This document shows, piece by piece, positions 1 to 64,000 of a DNA stretch of 64,000 bases (its first letter is position 1; the number at the start of each line of letters is the position of its first letter). Origin of the DNA: an uncultured Actinomycetes bacterium (GTDB taxonomy: Bacteria; Actinomycetota; Thermoleophilia; Gaiellales; JALYLC01); contig CAWCFJ010000007.1 of assembly GCA_963794695.1 (NCBI GenBank), forward strand, positions 44,310-108,309. The letters are read 5' to 3'. The notes beneath the pieces were generated by a model. It saw nothing but the letters and a program-made list of their open reading frames with translations, was not told the origin of the DNA and ran no database searches. The position numbers and the translations under genes were made by a program.

Positions 1-308
1 CCCGAAGACGGCGCCGTACTACTCGATCCTGCTCGACGGCGGCGGCTCCGACGTCCGCTACAGCATCCTGTACGTCCCGTCGCGCGCACATGGTCCGGCT
101 CGCGCAGAACCGGGTGCCGCCGTACCGCGACACGGTCGGCGCGTACTGGGCCGCCGCTGTCTGCGACCGACGAGCAGGCGTTCCGCCGCGCCGTCGGCAG
201 CCTGCGCCCGCTCGCGGCGCCGCGGCGCTGGGGCTAGACATCGGCGGCATCCAGCTCTGACCCCAACGGGGCATTCCGGCGCAGGGCGGGTCCGTCGATG
301 GGCTCGTC

Positions 309-1290
309 ATGTTACAACATTTGCTATCTCGCCCGATGCTCGTTGGAATCTTGGCAATTGCGGGCCTGTCCGTCGCCGGCACCGCGAGCGCGCCGGCTGC
401 GACGACGGCTCCCCGGGTCTTCGCCTTCATCGACGAGTTTCCCGACGCCACCCAGCAGGCCCGGCTTGCTCGCGGTGGCCTCCCAGATCGGGGTGGCCGC
501 GCCGGAGTGGTGCAGCATCCGGGGCACGACCTTCGGCTGCGACGCCGTCGACCAGAACCTGCTGGCGCTCGGGGCGTCGAGCGGCTTCACGGTCTGGCCG
601 GTCGTCAACCGTGCCGACCCGGGCCCCGACGATGCGCTGCTGGCGACGGCCGCGTCCCGCCGTCAGGCGGCCGACTCGATCGCCGCCTGGGCGGCCGAGG
701 CCGGCGTCGGCGGCATCACCCTCGACGTCGAGGGCGTCGACCCCGGCCGGGCGAACGCGTTCACCAACTTCGTGAAGCTGCTCGGGCGCGACCTGCACGA
801 CGACGGCCGCTCGCTCGCGGTCTACGTGCCGCGCCGCACCGGGGCGAAGGCCTCGGCGTGGAGCGCCGCCTACCAGTGGGGCGCGCTGGCCGACGCCACC
901 GACCTCCTGCTGGCCTCGTCCTACAGCGAGTCCTGGGAGGCGCCGGGCCCGGTCATCACGACCGCCGGCTTCTCGGCGCTGCTCGACTGGGCGGCCCGCT
1001 ACGGGACCGACCGGGTCGCACCGGTGCTGCCGGCCTTCGCCCAGCGCTGGGCGGCCGGAGCCACGGCGCCGGACATCCTCCCGGCGGCGACGGCCGCCGC
1101 CCGGGGCGACGTGGTCGGGCTCGGCGCGCAGCGCGACGGCGAGGCCTCGTACGTGGACGGCGGCGCCGTCACCTGGTTCGAGACCGGAGAGGGCCTGGCC
1201 CAGCGCCGCGCCGCTGCCGGCCAGGCCGGGTTCTCGTGGGTCGCGCTCTTCCTGCTCGGCTGGGAGCCGGCGTCGTTCTGGGGCGCCTGA
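309..1290 (+). CDS. Secreted glycoside-hydrolase-family-18-like protein, frameshifted: signal peptide in frame of 309, catalytic region in frame of 298
   Basis: Frame 309 gives signal peptide MLQHLLSRPMLVGILAIAGLSVAGTASA...RVFAFIDEFPDATQQAR, then degenerates into Arg-rich junk. Frame 298 takes over at about 465-480 with LLAVASQIGVAAPEW...GGITLDVEGVD...SLAVYVP, a GH18-like DxxDxE-type block. A one-base indel near 470 is needed to join them. Confidence 0.5.
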
Positions 1291-1770
1291 TCAGCCGATG
1301 AGCGCGACGAGCGCCGCGACGCTGTCTGCGACCGGACGGTCGGTGTCGAGCTCGTGGTGGGCGATCCGGCGCAGCAGCGGCTCGACCGTGTCGACGAGTG
1401 CCACGGCGCGGGCCGCGTCCTCGGGCCGGCTGCCGTAGGACCCCGCGGGCCGGTCCGCGAGCCGCGCGGCGAGCACGTGGCGGGGCGCCGTGAGCAGCAC
1501 GACGAGGTCGAAGCGTCGGGCGAGGCGGCCCATGTTGGGCGCACAGCCGCTCGCGAACAGCTCGCGGGCGTCTCCGTCCAGGAGCTCGGCGACCCGCTGC
1601 TCGCGCCAGACCCAGTCGCGGCCCGGCTCCACGGTGTCGCCGGCGGCCTCGACCCACTCGGAGAACGCCGGTTGGTCGAGGTCGACGGCGCGCCGGCCGC
1701 TGGCCGCGAGCGCCGCCACCAGGGCCGACTTGCCCGTGCCCGAGACGCCCGTGAGCAGCACGCGCGGCAC
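1291..1770 (-). CDS. P-loop NTPase (AAA/NMP-kinase-like ATPase)
   Basis: N-terminal Walker A motif LLTGVSGTGKSAL. Compact 159-aa ORF with non-biased composition. Confidence 0.7.
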   Translation of the reverse strand: MPRVLLTGVSGTGKSALVAALAASGRRAVDLDQPAFSEWVEAAGDTVEPGRDWVWREQRVAELLDGDARELFASGCAPNMGRLARRFDLVVLLTAPRHVLAARLADRPAGSYGSRPEDAARAVALVDTVEPLLRRIAHHELDTDRPVADSVAALVALIG

Positions 1771-1775
1771 CCGAC

Positions 1776-2378
1776 TCAGCGCGCCGCGTGGGCCCGCAGC
1801 GCGTCGAGCGCCCCGCGCAGCAGCGCCAGCGCCTGCTCGAGCTCGGCCGGGTCGATCGCGAGCTGGCGGTCGGCGACGCGCGCGCCGAGCGTGGTGAGGA
1901 GGGTGATGACGGCGCCGGCGTAGGTGTGGGCGGCCAGGCTGTCCGGGGCCACGCCGGCGTCCTCGGCGACCGCCCGGGCGATGGCCTTCTCGGACTCGGC
2001 GAGCCGGTCCGTCGCCAGGCCGCGCAGGTGCGGGTCGTGCGCCACGGTCCGCTGGCGCAGCAGCGAGAGGTCCTCGACGTGGGACGCGCCCTCGGCCTCC
2101 AGCCAGCGCACGATCCGCTCGAGCACGTCGCCGTCGCTGCCGTCCAGGGCGGCCGCCAGCCGGTCGAGCGGCTGCACGAGCCCGCCGAGGACGATGTCCT
2201 CCTTCGAGGCGAACCAGGTGTGCACGGTGCGCGGGGCGACGTCGGCGCGCTCGGCGATCTGGGCGATGGTGGCGCCCTCGAAGCCGCGCTCGAGGATGAG
2301 CTCGCAGGCGGCGCGGGTGATCGCCTCGCGCGTCCTGGCGTTCTTCCGTTCCCGCAGTCCCACGTGCTCCTCGATCAT
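1776..2378 (-). CDS. TetR family transcriptional regulator
   Basis: N-terminal helix-turn-helix RKNARTREAITRAACELILERGFEGATIAQIAERADVAPRTVHTWF. The in-frame ATG at 2378 is preferred over the TTG at 2396. It sits divergent to an MMPL transporter gene. Confidence 0.8.
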   Translation of the reverse strand: MIEEHVGLRERKNARTREAITRAACELILERGFEGATIAQIAERADVAPRTVHTWFASKEDIVLGGLVQPLDRLAAALDGSDGDVLERIVRWLEAEGASHVEDLSLLRQRTVAHDPHLRGLATDRLAESEKAIARAVAEDAGVAPDSLAAHTYAGAVITLLTTLGARVADRQLAIDPAELEQALALLRGALDALRAHAAR

Positions 2379-2452: not shown

Positions 2453-4600
2453 ATGGCCTCGCATCTTCAGGCGCTCGGACGCTTCTGCTTCCGCCGCCGC
2501 CGCTTCGTGCTCGTCTCCTGGATCGCCCTGCTCGCCGTGGTCGGCGCCGCCGCCGTCCTCGGGAACGGCTCCTTCGTGTCGTCCTTCTCGGTGCCCGGCA
2601 CCGAGTCGCAGAACGCCATGAACCTGCTCGAGCAGCGGCTGCCCAACGCAGGCGCCAACGGCGGCAGCGGCCGCGCGGTGTTCGCCGTCGACCAGGGGAA
2701 GACGTTCAGCGCAGCGCAGCAGCAGGCCATCCGCCGCACCGTCGCGGCGATCGAACAGCTGCCGTCCGTGGCGTCCGCGAGCGATCCGTTCGCCACCGGC
2801 GCGGTGTCGGCCGACAGGCGCGTCGCCTACACCCAGATCGGGTTCTCGAGGCCGTCGACCGACGTCAGCGGCGCTGACCGGACGGCCATCGAGCGGGCCG
2901 AGGCGTCCGCCCGGCAGGCCGGCGTCACGGTGCTCCTGGCCGGTGACGCCGCGCCTGTCCAGGCACAGGGAGGGATCCCGCCCGAGGCCATCGGGCTGCT
3001 CGTCGCGCTGGTGGTGCTGGCCATCACCTTCGGCACGATGACCGCCGCCGGCATGCCGCTCCTGACCGCGGCGATCGGCGTCGGCATCGGCCTCGCCGGG
3101 ATCCTCGGGCTGAGCGCCCTGACCGAGCTCTCGTCGGTCGTCACCAGCCTGGCCTCGATGCTCGGTCTGGCCGTCGGCATCGACTACGCGCTGTTCATCA
3201 TCTCCCGCTACCGCTCCCAGGCCCACGAGGGCATGGATCTCGAGGAGTCCGCCGGGCGCACCGTCGGCACCGCAGGCAGCGCCGTGGTGTTCGCCGGCGC
3301 GACCGTGATCATCGCCCTGGCAGCGCTCGCCGTCACCGGCGTCCCGTTCCTCACGGCGATGGGCCTCACGGCCGCCGCCACCGTGGCTGTCGCGGTGCTC
3401 GTGGCGCTCACCCTGGTCCCCGCCCTGCTGGGCTTCGCCGGCCGCCGCGCCGTCAAGGGCAAGCGCTTCAACGGCCCCGAGCACGAGCGGAAGGCCACGC
3501 TCGGCGCCCGCTGGGTGGCCCTCGTGGTGCGCCACCGCGTGGCCGCGATCGCCCTCACCGCCCTGACGACGCTCGCGCTCAGCCTGCCGCTGCTGCACCT
3601 GCACCTCGGCCTGCCCGACGACTCGACGGCGGCCAAGGGCACCCAGCAGCGCCAGGCCTACGACCTCCTCACCGAGGGCTTCGGCGCCGGGTTCAGCGGG
3701 CCGCTCACGATCGTCGCCGACGTTCCGAAGCAGGACGACGCCAACGCGGCCGCCGCGCAGATCCGCACCCGGCTGACCGCGCTCGCCGGCGTGACCGCGG
3801 TCACGCCCGCGAAGGTCACGCCCGACGGGTCGCTCGCGATCCTGTCGGTGATCCCGAAGAGCGGCCCGTCGACGAGCGCGACCGAGCACCTGGTCAACCA
3901 GATCCGCGGCCAGGAGGACGAGATCCGCGCGGCCACGGGGGCCCAGCTGTACGTGACCGGCCCGACCGCGGTCAACATCGACGTCACCAGCAAGATGGCC
4001 AGCGCCCTCCCGGTCTACCTGCTGGTCGTCGTCGGGCTGGCCCTGGTGCTGCTCACCATCGCGTTCCGCTCGGTGCTCGTCCCGCTCACCGCGGTCGGCG
4101 GCTTCCTGCTCTCGATCGGCGCCTCGCTGGGCGCGATGGTCGCGGTCTTCCAGGACGGGATCGGGGCCTCGCTGCTCGGCATCGAGCCCGCCCCCATCGT
4201 GAGCCTGCTCCCGGTGCTGATCATCGGGATCCTGTTCGGCCTGGCCATGGACTACCAGGTGTTCCTGGTCTCGCGGATGCACGAGGCCCACGCCCACGGC
4301 CAGGACCCGCAGGACGCCGTGCACCAGGGGTTCCGCCACTCGGCCCGGGTGGTGACGGCGGCGGCGCTGATCATGGGGAGCGTGTTCGCCGGGTTCATCC
4401 TGCCCGACGACGCGATCATCAGGTCGATCGGCTTCGGCCTCACCTTCGGGATCCTGATCGACGCGTTCCTCGTCCGCATGACGCTGATCCCCGCGCTGAT
4501 GAGCCTGCTCGGCTCGCGGGCCTGGCACCTGCCGCGCTGGCTCGACCGGCTCGTCCCGAACCTCGACCTCGAGGGCGCCGCGCTGGCCGACGAGCGCTGA
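2453..4600 (+). CDS. MMPL family RND-type membrane transporter (intact)
   Basis: Uninterrupted 715-aa ORF. N-terminal transmembrane segment, large periplasmic loops and a second transmembrane bundle with ...MDYQVFLVSRMHEAH..., the typical MmpL architecture. Confidence 0.85.
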   Translation: MASHLQALGRFCFRRRRFVLVSWIALLAVVGAAAVLGNGSFVSSFSVPGTESQNAMNLLEQRLPNAGANGGSGRAVFAVDQGKTFSAAQQQAIRRTVAAIEQLPSVASASDPFATGAVSADRRVAYTQIGFSRPSTDVSGADRTAIERAEASARQAGVTVLLAGDAAPVQAQGGIPPEAIGLLVALVVLAITFGTMTAAGMPLLTAAIGVGIGLAGILGLSALTELSSVVTSLASMLGLAVGIDYALFIISRYRSQAHEGMDLEESAGRTVGTAGSAVVFAGATVIIALAALAVTGVPFLTAMGLTAAATVAVAVLVALTLVPALLGFAGRRAVKGKRFNGPEHERKATLGARWVALVVRHRVAAIALTALTTLALSLPLLHLHLGLPDDSTAAKGTQQRQAYDLLTEGFGAGFSGPLTIVADVPKQDDANAAAAQIRTRLTALAGVTAVTPAKVTPDGSLAILSVIPKSGPSTSATEHLVNQIRGQEDEIRAATGAQLYVTGPTAVNIDVTSKMASALPVYLLVVVGLALVLLTIAFRSVLVPLTAVGGFLLSIGASLGAMVAVFQDGIGASLLGIEPAPIVSLLPVLIIGILFGLAMDYQVFLVSRMHEAHAHGQDPQDAVHQGFRHSARVVTAAALIMGSVFAGFILPDDAIIRSIGFGLTFGILIDAFLVRMTLIPALMSLLGSRAWHLPRWLDRLVPNLDLEGAALADER

Positions 4601-5838: not shown

Positions 5839-6715
5839 GTGCGGCTGCACGAGGGACAGGAGGAGGTCGACGGCGAGCTCGTGGCGCGCCTGCTCTCGGA
5901 GCAGGCCCCCGGGCTCGCCGGCCTCCCCGTCCGCCGGCACGCCTCGACCGGGACGGTCAACGCGATCTTCCGGCTCGGCGACGAGCTGTACGCGCGGCTG
6001 CCGCTGCTGGCTGCGTGGGCGGACAGCCTGGCCAACGAGGAGCGGGTGCTGCCGCGCCTCGCGCCGCACCTGCCGCTCGAGACGCCGCAGGTGGTGCACC
6101 GGGGAAGGCCGGGTGCCGGCTACCCGCTGCCCTGGGCGGTGTACCGCTGGATCCGCGGCGAGCCGTACGACGACGGGCTGGTCGCGGACGAACGTGAGGC
6201 GGCCCACGACCTGGCGGCGTTCGTGCAGGCGCTGCGGGCGGTGCCGCTCGACGGCAGCGAGGTGCGCGCCGGCCGCCGGCCGCTGCCCGCGCTCGACCGT
6301 CAGACCCGCGAGAACATCGCCGCGCTCGGCCAGCACTTCGAGCTCGCCGAGGTCGAGGCGGCCTGGACACGGGCGCTCGAGGCGCCGCTCTGGGACGGCG
6401 TGCCGACCTGGATCCACGCCGACCTGCTGCGGCCGAACCTGCTGGTGCGCGACGGACGGCTCGCGGCCGTGCTCGACTTCGGCGGCACCGGTGCGGGCGA
6501 CCCGGCCACCGACCTGGTCGCGGCCTGGGCGGTGTTCGGCCCGCACGGCCGGGCGGCCTACCGCGAGGCGCTCGAAGCCCGACGACGGCGCCTGGGAGCG
6601 GGGGCGCGGCATCGCGCTGCACCAGGCCGCCGCGATCGTGCCGTACTACGCCGAGACGAACCCGGTCTTCGCGGCGCTCGGGCGGCGCACGATCGAGCAG
6701 GTGCTCATCAGCTAG
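5839..6715 (+). CDS. Aminoglycoside phosphotransferase (APH) family kinase, with a C-terminal frameshift near 6580
   Basis: NAIFRLGDELYARLP...WIHADLLRPNLLV...VLDFGGTGAGDPATDL matches APH motifs. The last ~45 aa (WERGRGIALHQAAAIVPYYAETNPVFAALGRRTIEQVLIS) are read in the frame that ends at 6715. Confidence 0.7.
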
Positions 6716-7198: not shown

Positions 7199-8114
7199 AT
7201 GAGCGTCGAAACGACCACGGCCGTCGTCGCGACGGCCTTCGGCGGCCCCGAGGTGCTCGAGCTCCGGGAGCTGCCGCTCGCCCCGCCCGGCCCCGACGAG
7301 GTGGTGCTCGAGGTCCGCGCCGCGGGCACCAACCCGATCGACTACAAGCAGTACAGCGGGGCGATGGGCCGGCCGGAGCTGCCGCTGCGGCTGGGCGCGC
7401 GAGGCGTCCGGGGTGGTGGTCGGCAGCGGCGCCGAGGTGATCGCGTACCCGCGAACGGCACGTACGCGACGCACGCTCGTCGTGCCGGCGTCGAGCCTGG
7501 TCGAGAAGCCCGCGGCGCTCGGGTTCGAGGAGGCCGCCGGGCTCCTGCTGGCCGGCGTGACGGCGACCCACGCGCTGGCGGTCGTCGAGGCCGCAGCCGG
7601 CGACACCGTCCTGCTGCACGGCGCCGCCGGCGGGGTCGGGCTGCTCGCGATCCAGCTCGCGGTGCTGCGCGGCGCCCGGGTGATCGGCACCGCGAGCCCG
7701 GGCAGCCACGACCTGCTGCGCGAGCTCGGCGCCGAGCCCGTGGCCTACGGCGAGGGCCTGGCCGAGCGGATCCGGGCGCTCGCGCCGGACGGGGTCGACG
7801 CCGTCGTGGACGCCGCCGGCGGAGACGAGGCGCTCGACATCTCGCTGGACCTGGTCCCGGACCGCGGCCGCATCGTCACGATGGTCGCCGGGCCACGCGC
7901 CTTCGAGGCCGGCGTCAAGGTGATCGGCGGCGCCCCGGGTGCCGACCCGGGCACCGAGATCCGCCGCAGCGCCCGGCCCGAGCTGGCGCGGCTCGCCGGC
8001 GAGGGCACGCTGCGGGTCGTCGTCGCCGGCTCGTACCCGCTGGCCGAGGCCGCCGAGGCCCACCGCCGGCTGGCCGAGCGCCACGCCCACGGCAAGCTCG
8101 TCCTCACGCCCTGA
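7199..8114 (+). CDS. NADPH:quinone oxidoreductase / zinc-type alcohol dehydrogenase (MDR) family, frameshift near 7390
   Basis: N-terminus (MSVETTTAVVATAFGGPEVLELRELPLAPPGPDEVVLEVRAAGTNPIDYKQ...LPLRLG) lies in the frame of 7040. The nucleotide-binding remainder (VVGSGAEV...GAAGGVGLLAIQLA...) lies in the frame of 7413. One indel in 'ctgggcgcgcgagg' separates them. Confidence 0.7.
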
Positions 8115-8997: not shown

Positions 8998-9900
8998 CAG
9001 GGCAGATGGCGACGGCCCGGATGCGTCTCGTCGGTGAACGGCTGGCCGTTGTCCTCGTACACGTCCCAGAACGTGCCCTGCGGGAACGCAGCTGTTGAGG
9101 TCGACGGTCACCGAGCCCGAGCTGGACAGGGCGCCGCCGCCGAGCGGCGGCTGGCCGGCCGGGCAGGTGACGAAGCGCCCGGTTCTGGGACGACGGCGGG
9201 TTCATCACCGGCGCCCCGACCTGCACCGAAGTAGCCCTTCGGCTTCTTGGCGCAGATCGGCGAACACCTCGAACGTCGTGTCGAAGTTGGTGTTGGTCGT
9301 TCATGTCGGTGCGCCAGCCGTTGGCCTCGGGGAACGTGCTGTTGATCAGCACCGCAGTGCTGCCGGTGTTCGAGAGGCGAGCCGCCGCCGTACACCACGG
9401 TGTGCGCCGGACACGTCGAGCTGCCGCTGGCCTGCGTCTCGGCGGGGTCGGTGAACACCCCGCTCTCCACGATCGTCGTAGTTGCGGACGGCCTTGCCGC
9501 ACACCGCGTACACGGCGAACGTCGTCGGCGAGCTGACGTTGTTGACGTCGGCGACCCACGTGTTGCCGGCCGGGAAGGAGCTGTTCACGTTGGCGTTCAG
9601 CCCGCTCGAGGCGACACCACGCCGCCGCCGTAGGCCACCGTGCCGATCGGGCAGGCGACCGAGCCGCGGGTCTGGGTGAACTGGTCGAGGTGAAGAGCTG
9701 GGAGTGCACCTGGACGTAGCCCTTCGGCAGCTTGCCGGCAGCGCGGGTGCTGCCGGCAGGCCGTCTTGCCGGGCGCGGGCGCCGACGCCGGAACGCCCTG
9801 GACCGGGTTCTTGGGCTGGTCGGCCAGCGCGGCCGGGGCGGATGCGGCCAGCGCGACGCCGGCCAGGGCCGCTGCGAGCGGCCTCGCCTTCGAGGTCATG
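8998..9900 (-). pseudogene. Secreted repeat protein (signal peptide MTSKARPLAAALAGVALAASAPAALA), reading frame broken at least 4 times
   Basis: Pieces in all three minus frames are protein-like and repeat a module (CPxGTVAYGGG / CPAHTVVYGGG / FPAGNTWVADVNN / FPEANGWRTDMN). The DNA also carries an internal direct repeat (...acctgcaccgaagtagcccttcggc... at ~9210 and ...cacctggacgtagcccttcggc... at ~9700). C-terminal ...FWDVYEDNGQPFTDETHPGRRHLP ends at stop 8998-9000. Confidence 0.5.
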
Positions 9901-15330: not shown

Positions 15331-15356
15331 CACCAGGTCCTCGGGCTGGACCCAGG

Positions 15357-17850: not shown

Positions 17851-17899
17851 GTCTCCCCGTGCCCTTTCTGTCGGGCGGCGACCGGGTGGCCGCCGCCGA

Positions 17900-20696: not shown

Positions 20697-20721
20697 CGAC
20701 GGCGTCCTGTAAAGGATTCCA

Positions 20722-20733: not shown

Positions 20734-20790
20734 AGAGGCGGGATGGTTACAGACGCGACGGGCCGCCGTCAAGGCGTCAGGGGCGAGGGG

Positions 20791-41298: not shown

Positions 41299-41300
41299 TC

Positions 41301-44043: not shown

Positions 44044-44116
44044 ACGCGCGAGAGGCGTCCCGGTCGGACAGCGACCGGAACGCCTCCTCGAACCCGTGCA
44101 GCGGAGCTGTGTTGGA

Positions 44117-45353: not shown

Positions 45354-45395
45354 TTTCCTGTACCTTGGCGCCATGCCGCCACAGGCGGGAAGCGG

Positions 45396-47119: not shown

Positions 47120-47125
47120 GTCACG

Positions 47126-47500: not shown

Positions 47501-47627
47501 CTGTGTTACCCCCAAGGCAACTGGTGGCTTTACCGGCTGCCGCGGTCAGCCGCCTGTACCGGTTAAGTCGTCAGGCGCCGTTGGAGGTAACTGGAGAATT
47601 CCGCGGGCCTGCGCCCGCCGAGCGGTG

Positions 47628-50550: not shown

Positions 50551-50553
50551 GGG

Positions 50554-51594
<1,041 letters not shown>

Positions 51595-51683
51595 CGGTTC
51601 CTGCAGGGTGCGGGCCCTACATAAGAAGACGATCAACGTCGCCGGGAGTTCCCGCGAACTCCAAGTTAAACTCTGATCCCGTT

Positions 51684-52250: not shown

Positions 52251-52310
52251 GCGGGCCTCCTGCGAGATGTTCCCACCGAAGCACGCAGGATGGCACGCGC
52301 GCGAGGCGCG

Positions 52311-53210: not shown

Positions 53211-53214
53211 GCGC

Positions 53215-53898: not shown

Positions 53899-54029
53899 GG
53901 TCTTGTCAGCAAGTCAACGCGTTCGTAACCGACACGTCCAGATCAAGGGTGGCACGGTTCGCGACCCTCCGCTACCTTCTTCGTGAGCGACGTTCACATA
54001 CAACCGACGAGAGCGGTGGAGACCCCAGC

Positions 54030-56325: not shown

Positions 56326-56733
56326 ACGCGTGGTGGCCGGCCTCCGCCGCGGGTGGAGGCCGGCCACCTAATCGCCCCCTGTCTAGGGATGCGCACGTAC
56401 TCCTTTCACGTACCCTCCGTGCGATGGTCTCCGCGATCCGCCACCACGGCGTGCACGCCGACTGGTCGGGTGGGGCGATCAACGCCCACCTCGACGCGAA
56501 CCTGAAGGCTCAGGCTGCCGGCACGCGTGCCCAGATCCAGCAGCGAGCGGACTCGGAGACCCTGCAGGACATGTGGCGAAGCCAGCGGAGCCTGCTGGAT
56601 CTTCTCGCGTAGGGCGGCTACGCTCCGCGCCGCCGATCCAGCCTCGGCACGGTGACACCACAAGCAAGGGTGACAATAGGTCTTTCTTGCCCCGTGCGGG
56701 AAGGATGGGCGGCATGACGAGGATGCAGCTGCT

Positions 56734-59136
56734 GTGAGGACCGGGCAGCGTCGGGTTCGAGGGGTCGAGACCGAAGGACGAGAGCGGGCCGAGGGCGTGC
56801 TCGTGCTGCGCGCGGTCCGAGACCGTCAGGGTCGGGTGACCGACTTCCAGCACGTCCAGGTGGACGCCGGAGCGGCGGACCTGCTCGGCCGCTCGGCCAG
56901 CGAGCTCGAGGGCAGCAGGCTGCTCGAGGCGGCAGACGTCGCCTCCAGCGACCGCTTCGCGACGTACCGCCGGCTCCTGCTCACCCGCGAGTCGATCACC
57001 GGCGACCTCGTCGTGCGCACCACGAGCGGAGCCGAGCGCCGGCTGTCCCACGAGGCCTCGGCCAGCGGCGACCACGTCCTCGTGACGCTGCGCGAGCGGC
57101 GCGGCGAGGCAGACACCCAGCCGCACGTCGACGATGCGCCGTTCCTGCTGATCGGCTCGCTGCCGGACGCCCTCCTGGCGTACACCCCCGAGGGCCTGAT
57201 CGAGTGGGCCAACCCGGCCGCCGAGGTGCTGTTCGACGTGCCCGCCGCGAAGCTCCGCCACCAGCCGCTCGACACGGTGATCGCGTCGCGCAGCGGGGCG
57301 AGCCTGCTCGAGCCGGCGCACCTCGTCCCGGGCATCCACGAGGTGCTCGGCCGCCGGCCCGACGGGACCAGCTTCCCGGCCCGGCTGGCGGTGGCCCGGC
57401 TGCAGGACCGCGGACGCGTCCTGCTCGGGGCGACGGTGCAGGACATCTCCGAGCAGAAGCGGGCCGAGCGCGAGTACCGGCTGCGCGAGGAGGCGCTGCG
57501 CCAGCTGGCCGACGAGCAGTCCCAGCTGCACGTGGCCCAGGCGGCGCTGTCCCACGAGCAGGCCACGCTGCGGCGGATCGCGACCCTGGTCGCCTCGACG
57601 ACCGACCCGGACGTCGTCATGCACGGCGTGGCCCACGAGGTCGCCCGGCTCGTCGGCGCCGACGTCGGCCTGGTGGTGCGCTTCGACGGCGAGCGCGGCA
57701 CGGTCGCCGGCCTGCACGGAGAGGACCTGCTGCCCGGCGGCCTGGTGGGCGCGACCGCGCCGCTGCGCGGCGACGGCATGCTGGCCCGGATCGCCGAGCG
57801 CGACGGGCCGGTGCGCGGCGAGCTCCTCGAGCTGGTCGTCGCGGACTCGCTGCGCATGCTCGAGGTCGCCGCCGTCGGCGCGCCGGTGCGGCTCGGCGGT
57901 CGCGCCTGGGGCGCCGTGGTCGCCGTGAGCAAGCGCCGTGACGTCTTCGCGCGCGAGACGGAGCCGCGGCTGGCGCGTGCCGCCGAGCTCGTCGGGGTGG
58001 CCATCTCGAACGCCGAGGCCTGGCAGGCGCTCTCGCGCCAGGCCGCCAGCGACCCGCTGACCGGGCTGGCGAACCACCGCACGTTCCACGAGCAGCTCCG
58101 GCTCGAGGTCACCCGCGCGCGGCGCTACGACCGGCCGCTGGCGCTGGTGCTGCTCGACCTCGACCACTTCAAGCAGATCAACGACACCTACGGGCACGCC
58201 GCCGGCGACCAGGTGATCCAGGAGATCGCGCGCCGCCTGCGCGGCCAGGCCCGCGACGGCGAGCTCGTCGCCCGGATCGGTGGCGAGGAGTTCGCCTGGC
58301 TCCTGCCGGAGTCGGACGACGAGGGCGCCCGCACCGCGGCCGAACGCGTCCGCCAGGTGGTCATCGCGGCGCCGTTCTCGGCCGCCGGGCGGCTGACGAT
58401 CTCGGCCGGCGTCGCCGACCTGGCCCACGCGGGCACGCCCGAGCAGCTCTTCCAGCTCGCCGACGCCGCGCTCTACGCGGCCAAGGCCCGGGGCCGCAAC
58501 AACGTCATCCGGGCGAGCGAGGTCGGGTCGCGTCCGAGGCCCCAGCCACGCATCGACCGCTTCAACGCCCTCGCCGGCCTGCGGGCCCTGGCCCGGGCGG
58601 TGGACGCCAAGGATCCGTCGACCCAGCGCCACTCCGAGCGGGTCGCCGAGCTCGCCTGCCGGCTGGCCCAGGTGCGCGGCTGGCCGTCGGCCCGCTGCGA
58701 GCAGCTGCGCGAGGCGGGCCTGGTGCACGACGTCGGCAAGATCGGCGTGCCCGACGCGGTGCTCTACAAGTCGGGCGGGCTGACGTCGGACGAGCGGGCC
58801 CAGATCATGCTGCACGCGGCGCTCGGCGCGGCGATCGTGTCGGAGGTGCTGTCGCTCGAGCAGGTGCGCTGGATCCGCCACCACCACGAGCGCTTCGACG
58901 GCCGCGGCTACCCCGACAGCCTGGGCGGCGACGACATCGACGAGGGCGCCCGGCTGCTCGCGCTGGCCGACGCCTGGGACGCGATGACGGTGGCCCGGCA
59001 CTACGCGCCGCGGATCCCGCCGTCCGAGGCGATCGAGCTGTGCGGGACGCTCTCGGGCACGCAGTTCGCGCCGGAGGCCGTCGACGCCCTGCGCGAGCTC
59101 TGGGACGCCGGCGAGCTGCGCGACGAGCTGAGCTAG
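56734..59136 (+). CDS. Cytoplasmic PAS-PAS-GAF-GGDEF-HD-GYP multidomain c-di-GMP signalling protein
   Basis: Intact 800-aa ORF. ...DPLTGLANHRTFHEQL...LDLDHFKQINDTYGHAAGDQVI...RIGGEEFAWLL (GGDEF). ...GLVHDVGKIGVPD...HHHERFDGRGYPDSL (HD-GYP). Confidence 0.85.
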   Translation: MRTGQRRVRGVETEGRERAEGVLVLRAVRDRQGRVTDFQHVQVDAGAADLLGRSASELEGSRLLEAADVASSDRFATYRRLLLTRESITGDLVVRTTSGAERRLSHEASASGDHVLVTLRERRGEADTQPHVDDAPFLLIGSLPDALLAYTPEGLIEWANPAAEVLFDVPAAKLRHQPLDTVIASRSGASLLEPAHLVPGIHEVLGRRPDGTSFPARLAVARLQDRGRVLLGATVQDISEQKRAEREYRLREEALRQLADEQSQLHVAQAALSHEQATLRRIATLVASTTDPDVVMHGVAHEVARLVGADVGLVVRFDGERGTVAGLHGEDLLPGGLVGATAPLRGDGMLARIAERDGPVRGELLELVVADSLRMLEVAAVGAPVRLGGRAWGAVVAVSKRRDVFARETEPRLARAAELVGVAISNAEAWQALSRQAASDPLTGLANHRTFHEQLRLEVTRARRYDRPLALVLLDLDHFKQINDTYGHAAGDQVIQEIARRLRGQARDGELVARIGGEEFAWLLPESDDEGARTAAERVRQVVIAAPFSAAGRLTISAGVADLAHAGTPEQLFQLADAALYAAKARGRNNVIRASEVGSRPRPQPRIDRFNALAGLRALARAVDAKDPSTQRHSERVAELACRLAQVRGWPSARCEQLREAGLVHDVGKIGVPDAVLYKSGGLTSDERAQIMLHAALGAAIVSEVLSLEQVRWIRHHHERFDGRGYPDSLGGDDIDEGARLLALADAWDAMTVARHYAPRIPPSEAIELCGTLSGTQFAPEAVDALRELWDAGELRDELS

Positions 59137-59149
59137 CGGGCAGGGCCGG

Positions 59150-59653
59150 CTAGAAGCGCCCGGGGCGGCTGTCGCGCTCTTCGCGCACGCCCCGGATGAG
59201 CGCGTTCAGCGCGTCGATCCGCTCGTCGTCCTGGGCCCGGTCGCGCGCGGCCTCGGCGGCCCGCTCGGCGTTCCCGTCGCTCGAGCGCTCCCACCAGGCG
59301 TGCCACTCGTGGATCCGCAGCCGGTCGGTCGGCGCGAGCCGGTCGAACGTGAACGCCACCTCGCTGCGGCCGCCGTCGGCCTGCTCGCTGCGCACGACCC
59401 GGGCGCGGATGCCCGCGTCGCCGCGCATGGTCGGCGTGAAGACGATCCGCAGCACGTCGCCGACGCTGAGCACCCGGCCGACGCTGAGCGCGCGGCAGCC
59501 GTGCTCCGAGACGTCGAGGCAGACGAGCTTGACCGCCTCCTTCGGGGCGACCGAGCCGTCCTCGCCGTGCGCGTGCATGAACACGCGGTTGACGGCGACG
59601 CGGCGCGCGCTGCGCCGGTCCGTCAGGCGGCGGAAGCCGAGCCCACGGCTCAT
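59150..59653 (-). CDS. PilZ domain protein (c-di-GMP receptor)
   Basis: FRRLTDRRSARRVAVNRVFMHAHGEDG...CLDVSEHGCRAL matches the PilZ RxxxR and (D/N)xSxxG motifs. Convergent with the GGDEF/HD-GYP gene. Confidence 0.55.
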   Translation of the reverse strand: MSRGLGFRRLTDRRSARRVAVNRVFMHAHGEDGSVAPKEAVKLVCLDVSEHGCRALSVGRVLSVGDVLRIVFTPTMRGDAGIRARVVRSEQADGGRSEVAFTFDRLAPTDRLRIHEWHAWWERSSDGNAERAAEAARDRAQDDERIDALNALIRGVREERDSRPGRF

Positions 59654-59775
59654 CGGTCCGCCTCGCAGCGGAGCTGGGTCGTCGCGAGGTGCTGCATGGG
59701 ACCAGGATCTCGCATCCGGGAGGCCGCGGCAGTCCCTCAGGGGGGTGATCCGGAGCGTGACCTACAGTTGCCGGG

Positions 59776-60225
59776 ATGCATGCGGCCCCGCCTCCTGCCT
59801 CCTGCCTGAGCTCGCAGCTTCGCGTCCAGCGCGGTCGCGGCAGCGCCGCGTTGGGCACCACCTACGTCGAGCTGGTCTTCACGAACCGCTCGACCCGGAC
59901 GTGCACGCTGCGCGGGTACCCGGGCGTGTCGGCGGTCGCAGGGGACGACGGCCACCAGGTCGGCGCGCCGGCGGCGCGCGACCGCGGTTTCCGCGTCGTC
60001 ACGGTCGTCCTGCGGCCGGGCCGCGTCGCCAGCGCGGCGTACGGTCAGGCCAACCCGCTGAACTACCCGAAGGCCCGCTGCAGGCCGGTGCACGTGCGCG
60101 GGCTGCGGATCTACCCGCCGAACGCGCGCGCTGCGCTGTACCTGCCCTGGGCGCACCTGGCCTGCTCGACACGCGTCGTCGCGACCCACGTCCACCCGGT
60201 GCAGGCGGGTGCTGGCAACCCGTAG
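59776..60225 (+). CDS. DUF4232 domain protein
   Basis: ...TNRSTRTCTLRGYPGVS...VVLRPGRVASAAYGQANPLNYPKARCRPVHVRGLRIYPPN.... The N-terminus may be in another frame, as no clean signal peptide is seen. Confidence 0.45.
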   Translation: MHAAPPPASCLSSQLRVQRGRGSAALGTTYVELVFTNRSTRTCTLRGYPGVSAVAGDDGHQVGAPAARDRGFRVVTVVLRPGRVASAAYGQANPLNYPKARCRPVHVRGLRIYPPNARAALYLPWAHLACSTRVVATHVHPVQAGAGNP

Positions 60226-60955
60226 GGCGACCGAGACCACGCTGCCTCTGGCGCTCGACGGCGGCGTGCTCGACGTGACGCTGCGCCGCTCGCCCCGGGC
60301 GCGCATGCTCCGGCTCACGGTCGACCCGCGCGGGAACGTCACCCTGATCGTCCCGCGGCGCACCACCCGGCAGGCCGCGGAGCTGGTGCTGGCCGAGCGC
60401 TCGGGCTGGGTGCAGCGCCAGCTCGCCCGCATCGAGGCCCGCCGGGCGGCGCCCCGGGCGCTGGTGCGCGCGCCCGGCTGGCTGCCGCTGGCCGGCGGCG
60501 CGCTGGCGCTCGAGCGCGACCCCTCGGGGCCCGCGCGGGTGCGTGAGGCGGGCGACCGACTCGTCGTCGCCGGTGAGGATCGCGACGCGGCCGCTGCAGC
60601 GCTCGAGCGCTGGTACCGGCGCGAGGCCCGCCGCCGGCTCGAGGACGCCGTCGCCGAGCAGGCGCCGCGCGTCGGCGCGCGTCCGGCGCGGATCGCGGTG
60701 CGCGACCAGCGCACCCGCTGGGGCTCGTGCTCGCGCAGCGGCACGCTGTCGTTCTCGTGGCGGCTCGCCCTGGCCCCGCCGGAGGTGCTCGAGTACGTCG
60801 TCGTGCACGAGCTCTGCCACCTGCACGAGCACAGCCACCGGCCGCGTTTCTGGCGGCTCGTCGAGACCCACTGGCCGGGCTGGCGGGCCCAGGCCGCCTG
60901 GCTCCGCGAGCACGGCGAGGAGCTCGCGGCCTTCGACCCGGGAGACGTCGTCTGA
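60209..60955 (+). CDS. M48-family / YgjP-like (DUF45) zinc metallohydrolase
   Basis: ...VVVHELCHLHEHSHRPRFWRLVE... HExxH-type motif. Confidence 0.7.
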   Translation: MLATRRATETTLPLALDGGVLDVTLRRSPRARMLRLTVDPRGNVTLIVPRRTTRQAAELVLAERSGWVQRQLARIEARRAAPRALVRAPGWLPLAGGALALERDPSGPARVREAGDRLVVAGEDRDAAAAALERWYRREARRRLEDAVAEQAPRVGARPARIAVRDQRTRWGSCSRSGTLSFSWRLALAPPEVLEYVVVHELCHLHEHSHRPRFWRLVETHWPGWRAQAAWLREHGEELAAFDPGDVV

Positions 60956-61314
60956 TGGAGGTCCGCAACCTCGACAAGGCCGTCCCGTTCACCACCAAGG
61001 ACGGCAGCACCATCCGCGAGCTGCTCGGCCCGCGCACCGCGCCGGTGCAGAACCAGAGCCTGGCCGAGGCCACGCTCGGCCCCGGCCAGGCCACCGAGCG
61101 CCACTACCACGCGGTCTCGGAGGAGCTGTACTACGTCGTCGAGGGCGAGGGCGAGATGGAGGTCGACGGCCAGCGAGCCCGGGTCGGGCCCGGCGACGCC
61201 ATCCTCATCCCGCCCGGCGCCTGGCACCAGCTGCGCGCGTCAGCCGGCGGCCAGATCCGGATCCTGTGCTGCTGCGCGCCGCAGTACAGCGATGCGGACA
61301 CCTACTTCAGCTGA
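60955..61314 (+). CDS. Cupin domain protein
   Basis: The ATG overlaps the preceding stop (TGATG). ...HYHAVSEELYYVVEGEGEMEVDGQRARVGPGDAILIPPGAWHQL.... Confidence 0.65.
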   Translation: MEVRNLDKAVPFTTKDGSTIRELLGPRTAPVQNQSLAEATLGPGQATERHYHAVSEELYYVVEGEGEMEVDGQRARVGPGDAILIPPGAWHQLRASAGGQIRILCCCAPQYSDADTYFS

Positions 61315-61707: not shown

Positions 61708-62926
61708 CTACAGGTGGAGGAGGCGGGTGACGGTCCTCGTCCGCCCGCGTCCGTCCTTGAGCCGGAGCTGCAGCGTGGAGCGGCCGTGCGCCGCCTTCGG
61801 AAGCGTCAGCGCCACCACACGGAGCCCGGCGCGCACCGACACCGTCCGGCCGGCCACCACGCGGGTGCCCTTCAGCAGCCGCAGCCGGGCGCTCGCCGCC
61901 AGCGAGACCCGGAACGTCACCGTCACGCGCCGGCCGCCCTTCGGGTGGAGGAGCTTCCAGCGGACCGCGCCGACCGTCAGCGCGACCGCCGGCCGCTGGG
62001 CTGCCGTCCGGTTGAACGTGGCGGTCGCGTCGGCGGCGCTCGAGAGCGTGACCCGACAGGTCGCGGTCGAGCCGCTGCAGGCGCCGCTCCAACCGGCGAA
62101 CGTCGAGCCGGCGTCGGCCACGGCGGTGAGCGTCACCTCGCTCCCGCGGGCGAACGTCCCGGTGCAGGCCGCGCCGCAGGCGATCCCGCCGGGGCTGCTG
62201 GTCACGCGTGCCGCTGCCGGAGCCGTCGCGATGGACGCTCAGGGCCACGACGGCGCCGCCGGGCGTGCCGGGCGGCGGGGTGGGCGGCGCCGGCGGGGTG
62301 GGCGAGCCCGGCAGGGCCATGAAGCCGGCGCTCACCTGCGCGTCGCCGTTCAGGGCCACCTGGCAGCCGCCCGTCCCCGAGCAGGCGCCGCTCCAGCCGC
62401 CGAACGAGGCCGACGCGCCGGGCGTCGCCGAGAGCGTGACGACCGTGCCGAGCGGGAGCGCCGCGCTGCAGGTGCCCGGACAGGCGATCCCGCCGCTGTC
62501 CGACGTCACCCGTCCGTCGCCGGTCACGGCGACCGTCAGCGTCGCCGTGGGCGGCGCCGCCGCGGTGACGGTGAGCTGCCCGTGCATCACCGAGGCGTGC
62601 GGGTCGCACACGAACGAGTACGTGCCGGCCTGGAACGTGACCGTCCAGGTCACCGTGGTGACGTCGTCCACGCCCGTCGTCTCGTTCACGCCCGGCCCGC
62701 TCAGGTGGAAGTCGTGGATCGCGGAGTTGTCGTGCACCTCGATCTGGTACGTCCCGGCTGTGAGCGAGGTCACCGCCGAGCCGTCCTGGTGCTTCAGCGA
62801 GATCGAGTACGCGTCGTTCGTGCCGACGACCCCGACGAGCGTCTCGGCCCGTGCCGCGGCGGGGCCGAGCAGGGTCGCAAGGATGGCCGAGAGCACCAGC
62901 AGGCAGCGTCGCAGGGTCGCAGGCAC
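61708..62926 (-). CDS. Secreted cupredoxin-like domain protein with two InlB-B-repeat (bacterial Ig-like) modules, frameshift near 62200
   Basis: The GTG at 62926 has RBS GAAGGAGC. Signal, then ...SISLKHQDGSAVTSLTAGTYQIEVHDNSAIHDFHLSGPGV...TYSFVCDPHASVMHGQLTV (cupredoxin). Two repeats follow, ...GIACPGTCSAALPLGTVVTLSATPGASASFGGWSGACSGTGGC... and ...GIACGAACTGTFARGSEVTLTAVADAGSTFAGWSGACSGSTATC.... The second is in the alternate frame. Confidence 0.6.
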
Positions 62927-63093
62927 GGGACGAGCTCCTTCGGGGGAGGCGGGTCGGGCTCGCCCGGTCGTACGCCGCCCTCCGGCCTGCGGATTGTGTG
63001 CCGGACCGCCGCCCGTCCGGACAACGCGGCCCCGGGCAATCCGCCGCGAGCCGCTCCGCGTAGCGCGGTCGTCCTCGAGGAAAGGGAACGTCA

Positions 63094-63726
63094 TGACCCC
63101 GCGTTCGCTCCTGCTGGTGGCGCCGGCCGCTGCCGCGGTTGCCGCACTCGTGATCCCGGTCACGGCCTCGGCCGTCCGGGCGCCGTCGAAGACCGGCCGC
63201 CAAGAACGTCGCCGTCTCGGTGCAGAACTTCGCGTTCACCCCGGCGAACGCCAAGATCGGCCTCGGCGCGACGGTGACCTGGACGTTCAGGGACGCCGTG
63301 GCCCACACCGCCTGCGACTCGAGCGGCATGGGCCTGTGGTCGTCGGGCCCGAAGAGCGGGGGCGCCACGTTCGCGTTCACCTTCAAGGCGGCCGGCACCT
63401 ACGCGTACATCTGCCAGATCCACACGACGATGAGGGGCACCGTCAGCGTGCCCATGAAGTTCAAGCCCAAGAAGGGCGGAACGGCCACGAGCTACACGAT
63501 CACCTGGGCCACGGCGGCGCCGCCGGCAGGGTTCGTGTTCGACGTCCAGATCAAGCGCCCCGGCGCGGCCGCGTTCAGCAACTGGCAGACCGGGGTGGCC
63601 AGCCTCAGCGCCGCGTTCCACCCGGATGCCGGCACCGGCAGCTACCAGTTCCAGGCCCGCCTGCGCAAGACCTCGAGCGGCGCCGCCAGCGGCTACTCGG
63701 CGGCCAAGGGCATCAAGGTCTCCTGA
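63094..63726 (+). CDS. Secreted cupredoxin (plastocyanin/azurin-like) domain protein, frameshift near 63205
   Basis: Signal peptide MTPRSLLLVAPAAAAVAALVIPVTASA is in one frame. ...VQNFAFTPANAKIGLGATVTWTFRDAVAHT...GTYAYICQIHTTMRGTV is in the next. Confidence 0.6.
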
Positions 63727-63747
63727 GGAGCGCCTGAGTATCATCGG

Positions 63748-64000
63748 GCGGTGCGCCTGCCGTTGAAGCCGCCCGTCCTGCCCCAGCTCGCCCGGCCGGC
63801 GAAGACGCTGCCGGCCGGCGCGGGCTGGGCCTACGAGCCGAAGTGGGACGGCTTTCGGGCCGTCGTCTTCCAGGACGGGGACGAGTCCTACGTCCAGTCC
63901 AGGAGCGGCAAGCCGCTCAGCCGCTACTTCCCCGAGCTGCGCCTGCCGCCGGGGCGGTTCGTGCTCGACGGAGAGATCGTCGTGCTCGACGCAGACGGCG
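63748..64000 (+). CDS. ATP-dependent DNA ligase (LigC/LigD-ligase-like), 5' partial and truncated by the window end
   Basis: VRLPLKPPVLPQLARPAKTLPAGAGWAYEPKWDGFRAVVF...FVLDGEIVVLD, ligase motif I KxDGxR. Confidence 0.65.

Follow-up and report, generated by a model that had tools for sequence, protein, structure and literature searches.

When alleles with variants close to one another are collapsed, a long-read consensus sequence acquires INDEL errors and apparent frameshifts, and the density of such variants is very uneven (PMC8445201). In the case described by Cosentino, Brink and Siegel in 2021 (PMC8445201), a diploid eukaryote sequenced with PacBio, a two-allele consensus made frameshifts that were uneven along the genome, followed variant density, and vanished once the alleles were separated. 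A second source of broken frames has been described for Nanopore-only assemblies of bacteria and of metagenome-assembled genomes (MAGs) by Sereika et al. in 2022 (PMC9262707). Long-read MAGs below about 40x coverage retain gene-breaking indels (PMC9262707); these errors are single-base indels that sit in homopolymers and fragment the gene calls, and they are worse at low coverage. Mass pseudogenization of the Mycobacterium leprae type, finally, leaves dense disrupted open reading frames (ORFs) in still recognizable genes, and such true pseudogenes show stops, multibase and large deletions, relaxed selection, and disruptions shared between strains.

The 64-kb stretch of DNA analyzed here (the window) resembles each of these cases in part. 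Its frameshifts are uneven in the manner of the two-allele consensus, but the alleles would be those of co-assembled soil strains rather than of a diploid, and the serial third-position doublet signature is drawn from the window and not from the eukaryotic study. As in the Nanopore MAGs, single-base indels fragment the gene calls, but the events avoid homopolymers and are insertion biased at variable third codon positions. The window also has dense disrupted ORFs in recognizable genes, as in M. leprae, whereas none of the marks of true pseudogenes listed above was seen in it. On comparative sequence evidence, we consider it probable (roughly 80%) that the frame breaks are a collapsed-strain consensus artifact in a long-read soil metagenome assembly.

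MATERIALS AND METHODS

All genes that an earlier note on this DNA had listed as frameshifted were reexamined by codon-usage Viterbi segmentation, by Pfam searches with frame-corrected models, and with a frameshift-aware protein-to-DNA aligner run against intact homologues; DNA alignments were made to the related sequences L081, L162, and L163. Segmentation by codon usage was used because, at 73% G+C, neither unfiltered lists of ORFs nor a simple plot of GC3 by frame was informative or free of noise. The events in the MMPL-2 gene were also read by DNA alignment to the intact L081 sequence and by a three-way comparison with L162, and the encapsulin site was inspected in the DNA of ten orthologues. 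Frame changes between LigD-PE and ligase and between EncFtn and encapsulin proved to be plain gene boundaries with no frameshift, and the segment at 39.0 to 40.3 kb, which had been flagged as noncoding, is a repeat region rather than a shattered gene.

RESULTS

Number, form, and spacing of the frame breaks

About 60 single-base frame breaks were counted across 19 genes, so that the earlier figure of at least 35 was sound as a minimum but too low. Insertions predominated (about 47, versus 13 deletion-type events; P = 1.2e-5), and every event was 1 nt in length except for one net -1/+2 site in the secreted repeat protein gene. A model with insertions only was rejected, since the CitE, quinone oxidoreductase 1 (QOR1), CSLREA, and repeat protein genes have real single-base deletions. 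The 13 deletion-type events are not a specific prediction of a model in which both alleles are retained.

Three genes, encoding the secreted repeat protein, the CSLREA protein, and MMPL-2, carried 41 of the 60 events, and the variance-to-mean ratio of events per kilobase was 6.3, compared to a maximum of 1.96 in 20,000 simulations, which bears out the strong clustering described in the earlier note. Within these hot patches, each of which corresponds to a single gene and measures 0.9 to 1.6 kb, the error rate was 0.7 to 1.3%. The remaining 19 events, which are sporadic, fit uniform placement (P = 0.37). The longest event-free stretch (positions 42412 to 54298; 11.9 kb) had a P value of 3e-4 under uniform placement, and segmentation found only gene boundaries with stops within it. 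In the first clean stretch (positions 14300 to 21600), seven alignments over six genes with the L083 and L090 orthologues gave no frameshifts; this check used the same aligner as for the broken genes and covered 15.4 to 21.5 kb. Codon-usage segmentation likewise found no in-gene frame switches at 43 to 54 kb and 56.7 to 61.3 kb. The three regions described earlier as clean are thus clean, and the contrast drawn between the MMPL paralogues also held, with MMPL-1 (positions 2453 to 4597) unbroken and MMPL-2 carrying ten events rather than the minimum of seven.

Three densely broken genes

The gene for the MMPL-2 transporter (positions 54030 to 56325, plus strand) had ten single insertions (54299, 54315, 54529, 54698, 55198, 55264, 55356, 55551, 55617, and 55680) and no deletions. 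In the frameshift-aware alignment, the corrected protein was identical to the intact orthologue P0001 at 688 of 760 residues, with no stops, and identity to the homologue remained level throughout the patch, with no excess of mismatches.

The gene for the CSLREA-domain beta-helix protein (positions 27958 to 29605, minus strand) had about 18 events, comprising about 11 insertions (29488, 29221, 29074, 29028, 28985, 28936, 28896, 28844, 28503, 28466, and 28332) and about 7 deletion-type events (29334, 29145, 28672, 28550, 28438, 28364, and 28202). The protein was aligned to P0121, an intact orthologue of 535 amino acids that, like the CSLREA gene in the window, lies next to a divergent LigD_N gene; 351 of 527 residues were identical, there were no stops, and the frames obtained matched the codon-usage segmentation. 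Positions in the middle region depend on a homologue that is 57 to 67% identical, and the short excursions at 28466/28438 and 28364/28332 may be aligner artifacts. A chimeric query made of the CSLREA and repeat proteins matched CSLREA only.

The gene for the secreted three-module repeat protein of 298 amino acids (positions 8999 to 9899, minus strand) had about 13 events. Nine single insertions (9476, 9377, 9298, 9258, 9227, 9176, 9092, 9024, and 9002) were placed by DNA alignment to L163, to which the gene is 89.3% identical; the four deletion-type events comprised single deletions at 9735, 9686, and 9616 and the net -1/+2 site at about 9758 to 9764. The three single-base deletions, verified at the DNA level, fall in two-base runs (CC, AA, and GG). 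Frameshift-aware alignment to P0286 to P0290 gave 244 of 295 identical residues, again with no stops. Deletion-type events were concentrated in the CSLREA gene and in the 5' portion of the repeat gene, and both genes far exceed the minimum of four shifts each that had been put forward for them.

Genes with one to three events

The other genes named in the earlier note were also broken at or near the positions given there, with the qualifications that the shifts in the first two are only probable and that GH13 has one demonstrable shift rather than at least two. For the GH18-like secreted protein (positions 309 to 1290, plus strand), an extra base is probable at about 470, where the signal peptide lies in frame +2 and the remainder in frame +0; the Pfam GH18 match is weak and does not cross the junction. 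In the APH phosphotransferase gene (positions 5839 to 6715, plus strand; true stop at 6713 to 6715), codon usage moves from frame +0 to +1 and points to a probable extra base at about 6574, and correction extended the domain match from 231 to 238 of 239 model positions, a gain of 7 positions and 2 bits. QOR1 (positions 7199 to 8114, plus strand) had an extra base at about 7399 (GCG[C]GAG), a missing base that is only bracketed at about 7430 to 7452, and an extra base at about 7478 (CAC[G]CTC); the last is confirmed by a PDB alignment in which GTYATHLVVPASS aligns gap free, and the three-event model did not lengthen the Pfam ADH_N match.

Among the adjoining genes on the minus strand, that of the CitE/HpcH-like lyase (positions 10054 to 10890) had a 1-nt deletion at about 10672 (ACG C-G TTC), where the window has 26 nt for a segment that measures 9 residues (27 nt) in five homologues, and the Pfam domain is unbroken over the junction. 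The family III CoA-transferase CaiB (positions 10889 to 12090) had single insertions at about 11178 and 11271, the latter an example of a site that parses in more than one way; the Pfam match (1 to 366 of 366) runs over both junctions, six homologues were aligned, and there were no amino acid gaps relative to L083 and L084. Single insertions were also found at about 12828 in the X-FGE fusion gene (positions 12081 to 14033), both parts of which lie in one ORF in the L083 orthologue, and at about 14236 in the ADP-ribosylglycohydrolase 2 gene (ARH-2; positions 14031 to 15368), with a Pfam match of 1 to 286 of 287 over the junction.

An extra base at about 22208 in the AraC regulator gene (positions 22097 to 23027, minus strand) lies within an HTH_18 match of 1 to 78 of 80, and one at about 26990 to 27014 in the LysR regulator gene (positions 26542 to 27469, plus strand), where the alignment segments are divided between frames 1 and 2, lies within a LysR_substrate match of 3 to 206 of 209. 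The HNH endonuclease gene (positions 27442 to 27955, plus strand) had an extra base at about 27597 (GGG[C]GAG), and its model match, which began at position 12 when uncorrected, covered 1 to 46 of 47 after correction. The encapsulin gene (positions 31490 to 32300, plus strand) had one extra base within 31652 to 31658 (GC[C][G]CTC); the Linocin_M18 match (1 to 252 of 253) spans the junction, and 80 of 80 orthologues matched the corrected protein over residues 1 to 260 or more. Synteny at these 80 loci did not extend past the EncFtn-encapsulin pair, so they could not be used for other genes.

The GH13 alpha-glucosidase-like gene (positions 37305 to 38980, minus strand) had one demonstrable extra base, at about 37650, with the alpha-amylase domain (1 to 440 of 446) over the junction. 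The second shift was dropped, as the -2 frame reads on to a genuine stop at 37305, with the ATG of the following gene at 37305 to 37307. Extra bases were also found at about 41473 in the aminoglycoside nucleotidyltransferase gene (ANT; positions 41362 to 42119, minus strand; AadA_C 2 to 100 of 103 over the junction) and at about 42411 in the gene for quinone oxidoreductase 2 (QOR2; positions 42120 to 43018, minus strand), where ADH_zinc_N and ADH_zinc_N_2 span the junction. Cupredoxin-1 (positions 61711 to 62950, minus strand; extra base at about 62210) changes frame between its two InlB-B-repeat-like domains, and Flg_new_2 was matched twice in the corrected model. In cupredoxin-2 (positions 63087 to 63726, plus strand; extra base at about 63190), frame +2 encodes the signal peptide and frame +0 the copper-binding domain, and the corrected model matched Cupredoxin_1 at 6 to 103 of 104.

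Extra bases lie beside variable third codon positions

The sister assembly L162 (ENA contig_4254), 91.6% identical to the window over 9.9 kb, carries its own set of 56 single extra bases, many of them in genes without events in the window. In MMPL-2, 3 of the 10 window sites coincide with L162 insertions, and about 23 sites are private to L162. At positions 54299, 54529, 55356, and 55551, the two bases that the window holds at the third codon position are that of L162 and that of L081, and at 54315 and 55264, the third position that is doubled in the window is a doublet in L162 too. Overall, 15 of 19 window insertions lay beside a third-position base that differed (P = 0.027), a modest result by itself, as did 27 of 31 L162 insertions in window-clean genes (null, 0.55; P = 1.4e-4), for which a context-matched null gave an expectation of 20.0 (P = 0.0015); combined, the association held for 42 of 50 (P = 1.4e-5). 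G/C doublets accounted for 23 of the 31 L162 insertions (P = 2.9e-6). A codon-slot test on MMPL-2 alone (6/3/1) was not significant (P of about 0.15), and the power came from the L162 events. Since the extra bases track variable third positions, collapsed strain variation is favored over simple low coverage.

Under this explanation, co-assembled strains would differ by single-nucleotide polymorphisms (SNPs), usually a silent G/C difference at the third codon position, and the consensus or polishing step would mistake the two alleles for an inserted and a deleted base and retain both in a row (N1 N2 [X][Y]). The minority of missing bases would reflect the same confusion resolved in the opposite direction, or a base lost from a two-base run. 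Events would be dense where the strains carry divergent alleles and absent where the population is homogeneous, giving kilobase-scale hot patches and long clean stretches.

Plain low-coverage long-read noise, in which few reads over the dense patches leave residual random indels unrelated to strains, appears unlikely, although the error rates in the patches are like those of one or a few reads, retained indels are known from long-read MAGs of low coverage (PMC9262707; PMC12313526), and the sporadic events are compatible with uniform placement. Random noise would be blind to the reading frame, yet third positions are tracked under the context-matched null and in the combined test above; doublets match the alleles of relatives, two sites recur in L162, homopolymers are depleted of events, and the patch has no visible excess of mismatches. 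Patches confined to single genes are, moreover, short beside long-read lengths. The earlier attribution to indel sequencing error with varying coverage or quality was right as to the kind of event, but its argument from homopolymer-type errors, with coverage as the cause of the clustering, does not agree with the data; the events avoid homopolymers.

The breaks are not inherited, and purifying selection acts on the genes

The corrected genes were all full length, and none had an in-frame stop. On a 47-kb syntenic JGI contig from an independent close relative, eight of eight tested genes were intact (AraC, 310 amino acids; ARH-2, 445; X-FGE, 665; CaiB, 397; CitE, 285; repeat protein, 298; QOR1, 312; APH, 291), and the lengths of ARH-2 and AraC equaled the corrected window lengths. 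Intact orthologues exist at 83 to 90% identity, those of MMPL-2 being P0001 to P0004. The CSLREA orthologue P0121, the repeat protein orthologues P0286 to P0290, and the 80 encapsulins are likewise intact. The dN/dS ratio of MMPL-2 was 0.21 overall (0.25 within the patch versus 0.21 in the clean 3' part), and its GC3 was 0.975, compared to 0.977 to 0.985 in intact paralogues, with no sign in this gene of relaxed selection or compositional decay. The frame breaks are not inherited, and the broken genes are under purifying selection.

It had also been proposed that a subset of transporter, surface, and secreted protein genes are genuine decaying pseudogenes; the candidates would be MMPL-2, CSLREA, and the repeat protein, over a background of sequencing error. 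The three densest genes do encode envelope or secreted proteins, a class that is often lost or variable, and MMPL-2 is broken up in L162 as well. Bacterial pseudogenes show a deletional bias, whereas MMPL-2 has ten insertions and no deletions. Nonsense codons and truncations were absent from the 41 events in the three genes, with only one site other than a single base, and the lesion spectrum of pseudogenes (nonsense, multibase indels, deletional bias, and truncations) was not found among the roughly 60 events. The comparison with orthologues suggested in the earlier note as a check for conserved disruptions found the orthologues intact and the related assembly broken at different positions: 7 of the 10 MMPL-2 sites are in the window only, and L162 breaks lie mostly elsewhere, including in genes that the window has unbroken. 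With selection on MMPL-2 as given above, the pseudogene proposal is unsupported and very improbable, and the broken frames are almost certainly single-base consensus errors.

Homopolymers, motifs, and recoding

The shifts had been said to fall in short G/C runs, and the three single-base deletions of the repeat gene do fall in two-base runs, with those of CitE and QOR1 open to the same parse. However, location in short G/C runs is uninformative, because the DNA is 73% G+C, and where the claim was tested it was wrong: the inserted base did not extend its neighbor in 8 to 9 of 10 cases in MMPL-2 and 25 of 31 in L162, where homopolymer-like insertions were in fact depleted (6 of 31; null, 0.53; P = 1.3e-4). 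Dense genes had 1.4 to 5.5 runs of at least 4 bases per kb and none of at least 5, compared to 4.8 to 6.4 runs of at least 4 per kb in clean stretches, and no common motif was evident at the sites. Classical homopolymer or methylation-motif basecalling errors of the Nanopore R9, 454, or Ion Torrent type can thus hardly account for the events. Nor was there a simple-sequence repeat tract, as in phase-variable contingency loci, at the shift sites, the contexts being unique sequence. Recoding that restores the frames, by either programmed +1 ribosomal frameshifting or editing of the transcript, would suit the strong excess of +1-type events in genes kept under purifying selection, but its probability is negligible, as a conserved slippery or stimulatory motif is absent, orthologues read through these positions in one frame to give the same proteins, L162 has different sites, and we know of no precedent in bacteria for 10 to 18 recoding sites in one gene.

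DISCUSSION

The explanation by collapsed strains is consistent with three sets of observations, namely, the absence of the disruptions from independent orthologues, purifying selection on the broken genes, and the coincidence of sites with polymorphic third positions. The window belongs to a contig of a Solirubrobacterales/Thermoleophilia soil bacterium, and eight of its intact proteins are encoded together on an NCBI/ENA contig of 534,986 bp. It is most likely part of a long-read (Nanopore, Flye-type) MAG, a platform and polishing step that we infer; most of its closest relatives are Nanopore MAGs of Microflora Danica, named in the contig_N style, from a catalogue of microdiverse soils built with metaFlye and one round of Medaka (PMC12313526). 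True inactivation of genes in single strains, as the source of some of the events, is a more remote reading.

The frame breaks are a data quality warning and, as such, of low biological interest. Gene calling would wrongly return about one-third of the genes in the window as fragments or pseudogenes, among them those for encapsulin, an MMPL transporter, and several regulators, and a search of this contig for pseudogenes, for recoding, or for small ORFs that are new would be misled. The pattern of gene-clustered, homopolymer-avoiding single-base insertions with two different bases at the third position offers a read-free diagnostic of collapsed strain variation, and where it is met it calls for haplotype-aware or short-read polishing. 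More tentatively, and with less than even likelihood, the error pattern might be read as a fossil record of population structure, in which each doublet marks a strain SNP and the hot genes, for a CSLREA surface protein, a secreted Cys-repeat protein, and one MMPL transporter, hold divergent alleles in this uncultured population through diversifying selection or recombination. If so, hot spots of microdiversity would be readable from unpolished long-read MAGs without the reads.

Frame-breaking events across the window

The G+C content of the window is 69 to 77%, so that long open reading frames occur in all six frames. Coding regions were delimited by a seven-state Viterbi segmentation with a codon-usage model trained on the window itself, same-strand pieces lacking a terminal stop were grouped, and each suspected junction was then tested by homology. 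Nucleotide-level maps of events were obtained by aligning the DNA to intact homologues with a frameshift-aware protein-to-DNA dynamic-programming aligner. Over the whole window, segmentation, Pfam searches and frameshift-aware alignment placed approximately 60 events in 19 genes, in keeping with an earlier note that had claimed at least 35 single-base frameshifts. All but one of the events involved a single base, the exception being a site of net -1/+2 at approximately 9758 to 9764. Two large genes of 784 aa (23957 to 26309, + strand) and about 390 aa (45917 to 47116, + strand) had a very strong coding signal (GC3 of about 0.97) and no Pfam match at all.

A Pfam domain continued unbroken over the predicted junctions in CitE, CaiB (two junctions), the ADP-ribosylglycohydrolase ARH-2, AraC, LysR, encapsulin, ANT, the quinone oxidoreductase QOR2, GH13, and MMPL-2 (the first domain across four junctions), and the HNH domain was whole only in the frame-corrected model. 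At least two shifts had been claimed for GH13; one was demonstrable and a second was not. Between GH13 and the next gene lies 1.2 kb without coding signal (39250 to 39850 and 40054 to 40290), with no tRNA or Rfam matches in these stretches; it contains a tandem duplication of approximately 277 nt (39296 to 39544 versus 39574 to 39822, 97% identical) and, after it, degenerate repeats of 47 nt around GGGTCGCGCTGG.

Frameshift-aware alignment gave two events in CaiB, one net -1 event in CitE, and one event each in X-FGE (at 12828) and ARH-2 (at 14236); three events were mapped in the quinone oxidoreductase QOR1 and one in each of the two cupredoxins. The shifts previously claimed in GH18 and APH (the latter at approximately 6580) are probable only, at approximately 470 and 6574, respectively. 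In a gene truncated at the window edge (1 to 219, + strand), the frame apparently changes twice, from +1 to +2 to +0, at approximately 80 and 162; these are possibly two further +1 events, and no Pfam or homologue support was found for the frame changes in this gene. X-FGE itself (12081 to 14033, - strand) encodes a conserved fusion of about 665 aa with a C-terminal FGE-sulfatase domain and an N-terminal portion of about 430 residues with no Pfam match. It is flanked by two ADP-ribosylglycohydrolase genes and the CaiB/CitE pair, an arrangement also seen in a related locus (L083) and in a 47-kb JGI contig.

Most events fell in three genes. In MMPL-2 (54030 to 56322), alignment to three intact homologues (P0001, P0002 and P0004) gave ten events, and the corrected protein was identical at 688 of 760 residues with no stops; at least seven had been claimed, together with an intact MMPL-1, and MMPL-1 (2453 to 4597) is indeed intact. 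The secreted repeat gene (exactly 8999 to 9899, - strand) had 12 events relative to an intact homologue, P0286 (8 insertions and 4 of deletion type), or approximately 13 counting an additional insertion near the stop (9002), with 244 of 295 residues of the corrected protein identical. The CSLREA gene (27958 to 29605) had approximately 18 events relative to its intact orthologue P0121, although a few brief frame excursions midway along the gene depend on a homologue only 57 to 67% identical. For both genes, the earlier estimate had been at least four. The repeat protein belongs to a secreted family of about 298 aa, frequent in JGI soil metagenomes, with three Cys-containing modules (CP.GT..YGGG ... 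NS.FP..N.W ... VYA.C); it has no Pfam domain, and PF27479 occurs in a few distant homologues. The P0121 gene has the same LigD_N neighbor as the CSLREA gene, and in the window LigD 3'-phosphoesterase, ATP-dependent DNA ligase, EncFtn and encapsulin genes follow in a row (29722 to 32300, + strand), the EncFtn-encapsulin pair being kept in 80 Thermoleophilia MAG loci.

The strong clustering that had been noted was confirmed. The variance-to-mean ratio of events per kb was 6.3, whereas 20,000 simulations of uniform placement never exceeded 1.96; of 64 one-kb bins, 44 had no event (25 expected), and the longest event-free gap was 11,888 nt (P = 3e-4). The repeat, CSLREA and MMPL-2 genes make up 7.6% of the window yet hold 41 of the 60 events, and the remaining 19 fit a uniform scatter (P = 0.37). 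In agreement with the reported clean region at 14.3 to 21.6 kb, the same aligner found no frameshifts in seven alignments over six genes at 15.4 to 21.5 kb.

Evidence for errors rather than pseudogenes

The earlier note had considered that some of the disrupted genes might be genuine decaying pseudogenes. Alignments of the corrected genes to intact homologues revealed no stops or truncations. Extra-base events outnumbered missing-base-type events by 47 to 13 (P = 1.2e-5), and MMPL-2 had ten insertions and no deletions. Bacterial pseudogenes show a deletional bias, and both the insertion-only pattern of MMPL-2 and the overall excess of insertions are the opposite of this. Moreover, the dN/dS of corrected MMPL-2 relative to the intact coding sequence of a related locus (L081) was 0.21 (0.25 within the patch versus 0.21 in the clean 3' part), its GC3 of 0.975 matched that of intact paralogues (0.977 to 0.985), and nucleotide identity to L081 was flat over the patch.

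Comparison with orthologs for conserved disruptions, which had been proposed as a check, gave the same answer. The JGI contig, from a close relative (at least 90% identity at the SBP gene), has the gene order of the window, and in it AraC (310 aa), ARH-2 (445), X-FGE (665), CaiB (397), CitE (285), the repeat protein (298), QOR1 (312) and APH (291) are each encoded by one intact gene, with lengths that agree with the corrected models. A contig with a Flye-style name from a sister assembly (L162; ENA ERZ25039572 contig_4254) is 91.6% identical to window positions 51513 to 61312 and contains 56 one-base insertions within 9.8 kb, a higher density than that of the window. These fragment its MMPL, TetR and PAS-GAF-GGDEF-HD genes, and many interrupt genes that have no event in the window (for example, the PAS-GAF-GGDEF-HD gene and 51.6 to 52.7 kb); conversely, 7 of the 10 MMPL-2 insertions of the window are missing from L162. 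Since L162 and the window are broken at mostly differing sites and the JGI relative is intact, the disruptions belong to each assembly and not to the lineage. Everything in these sequence comparisons points to the disruptions in the window being errors rather than pseudogenes.

Doublets at the third codon position

The shifts had been ascribed to short G/C runs. Homopolymer slippage does not account for them: wherever the flanking sequence is conserved, the extra base matches neither neighbor (for example, ggt[G]cat, cga[C]ggg, gct[G]caa, cca[C]gaa and atc[G]agc) and the three dense genes have no runs of 5 or more and fewer runs of 4 or more (1.4 to 5.5 per kb versus 4.8 to 6.4 in clean stretches).

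Rather, almost every affected codon, with its four bases, fits the form N1 N2 [X][Y], in which two differing bases compete for the third position. In a three-way alignment of MMPL-2, the doublets combine the alleles of the two relatives: the window has GT[G][C] at 54299 and CC[G][C] at 54529, where L162 has G and L081 has C; GG[G][C] at 55356, where L081 has G and L162 has C; and CA[C][G] at 55551, where L162 has C and L081 has G. At 54315 and 55264, L162 has a doublet at the identical third position. The same pattern occurs in the repeat gene relative to another related locus, L163, with GC[C][G] and AG[C][T] as well as AC[G][C] opposite a C in L163; it is also present in encapsulin, QOR1 and HNH.

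The association with codon position was quantified for 31 single insertions of L162 in genes for which the window gives a clean reading frame. The inserted base adjoined an unlike third-position base in 27 of the 31 (random-insertion null, 0.549; P = 1.4e-4), compared to 20.0 expected when the flanking dinucleotide and inserted base of each event were fixed (P = 0.0015). G/C doublets accounted for 23 (null, 0.328; P = 2.9e-6), and only 6 were homopolymer-like (null, 0.53; P = 1.3e-4). Among the window's own DNA-verified insertions, 15 of 19 showed the association (P = 0.027), giving 42 of 50 for both sets combined (P = 1.4e-5). Since a sequencer is blind to reading frame, this association indicates that the events fall at natural polymorphic sites, most of them silent.

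Collapsed strains as a putative source

Frame-corrected encapsulin retrieves, from soil MAGs, 80 orthologues with identities of up to 79%; Microflora Danica Nanopore MAGs, with contigs named contig_N, supply many of these. That long-read catalogue, for which metaFlye and a single Medaka round were applied to microdiverse soils (PMC12313526), holds many of the closest relatives of the window, and the window itself was not placed in it. The window most likely derives from a long contig of the type made by long-read metagenome assemblies. The organism belongs to Solirubrobacterales/Thermoleophilia.

Plain low coverage is a possible source of the sporadic events, as gene-breaking indels persist in long-read MAGs below approximately 40x (PMC9262707), but it leaves the codon-position signal unexplained. 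We propose instead that the assembly merged reads of at least two co-occurring strains into a single contig. A SNP mismatch might then be rendered as an insertion plus a deletion in the pile-up or partial-order alignment, and a consensus or polisher that retained both bases would yield +1. An occasional -1 could arise if neither base were kept or if one were lost from a two-base run; the -1 type was seen in CitE, QOR1, three repeat-gene sites and approximately seven CSLREA sites, and collapsed strains fit these events less specifically. Event density would track local strain divergence, which would give hot patches of 0.9 to 1.6 kb on single genes beside event-free stretches of 5 to 12 kb. An artefact of this kind has been described: in a long-read assembly with collapsed alleles, nearby allelic variants misaligned reads, adding indel errors and apparent frameshifts, and variant density was very uneven (PMC8445201). 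The frameshifts in the window are almost certainly a technical artefact and not a biological feature, which is a strong warning for downstream interpretation of the contig.
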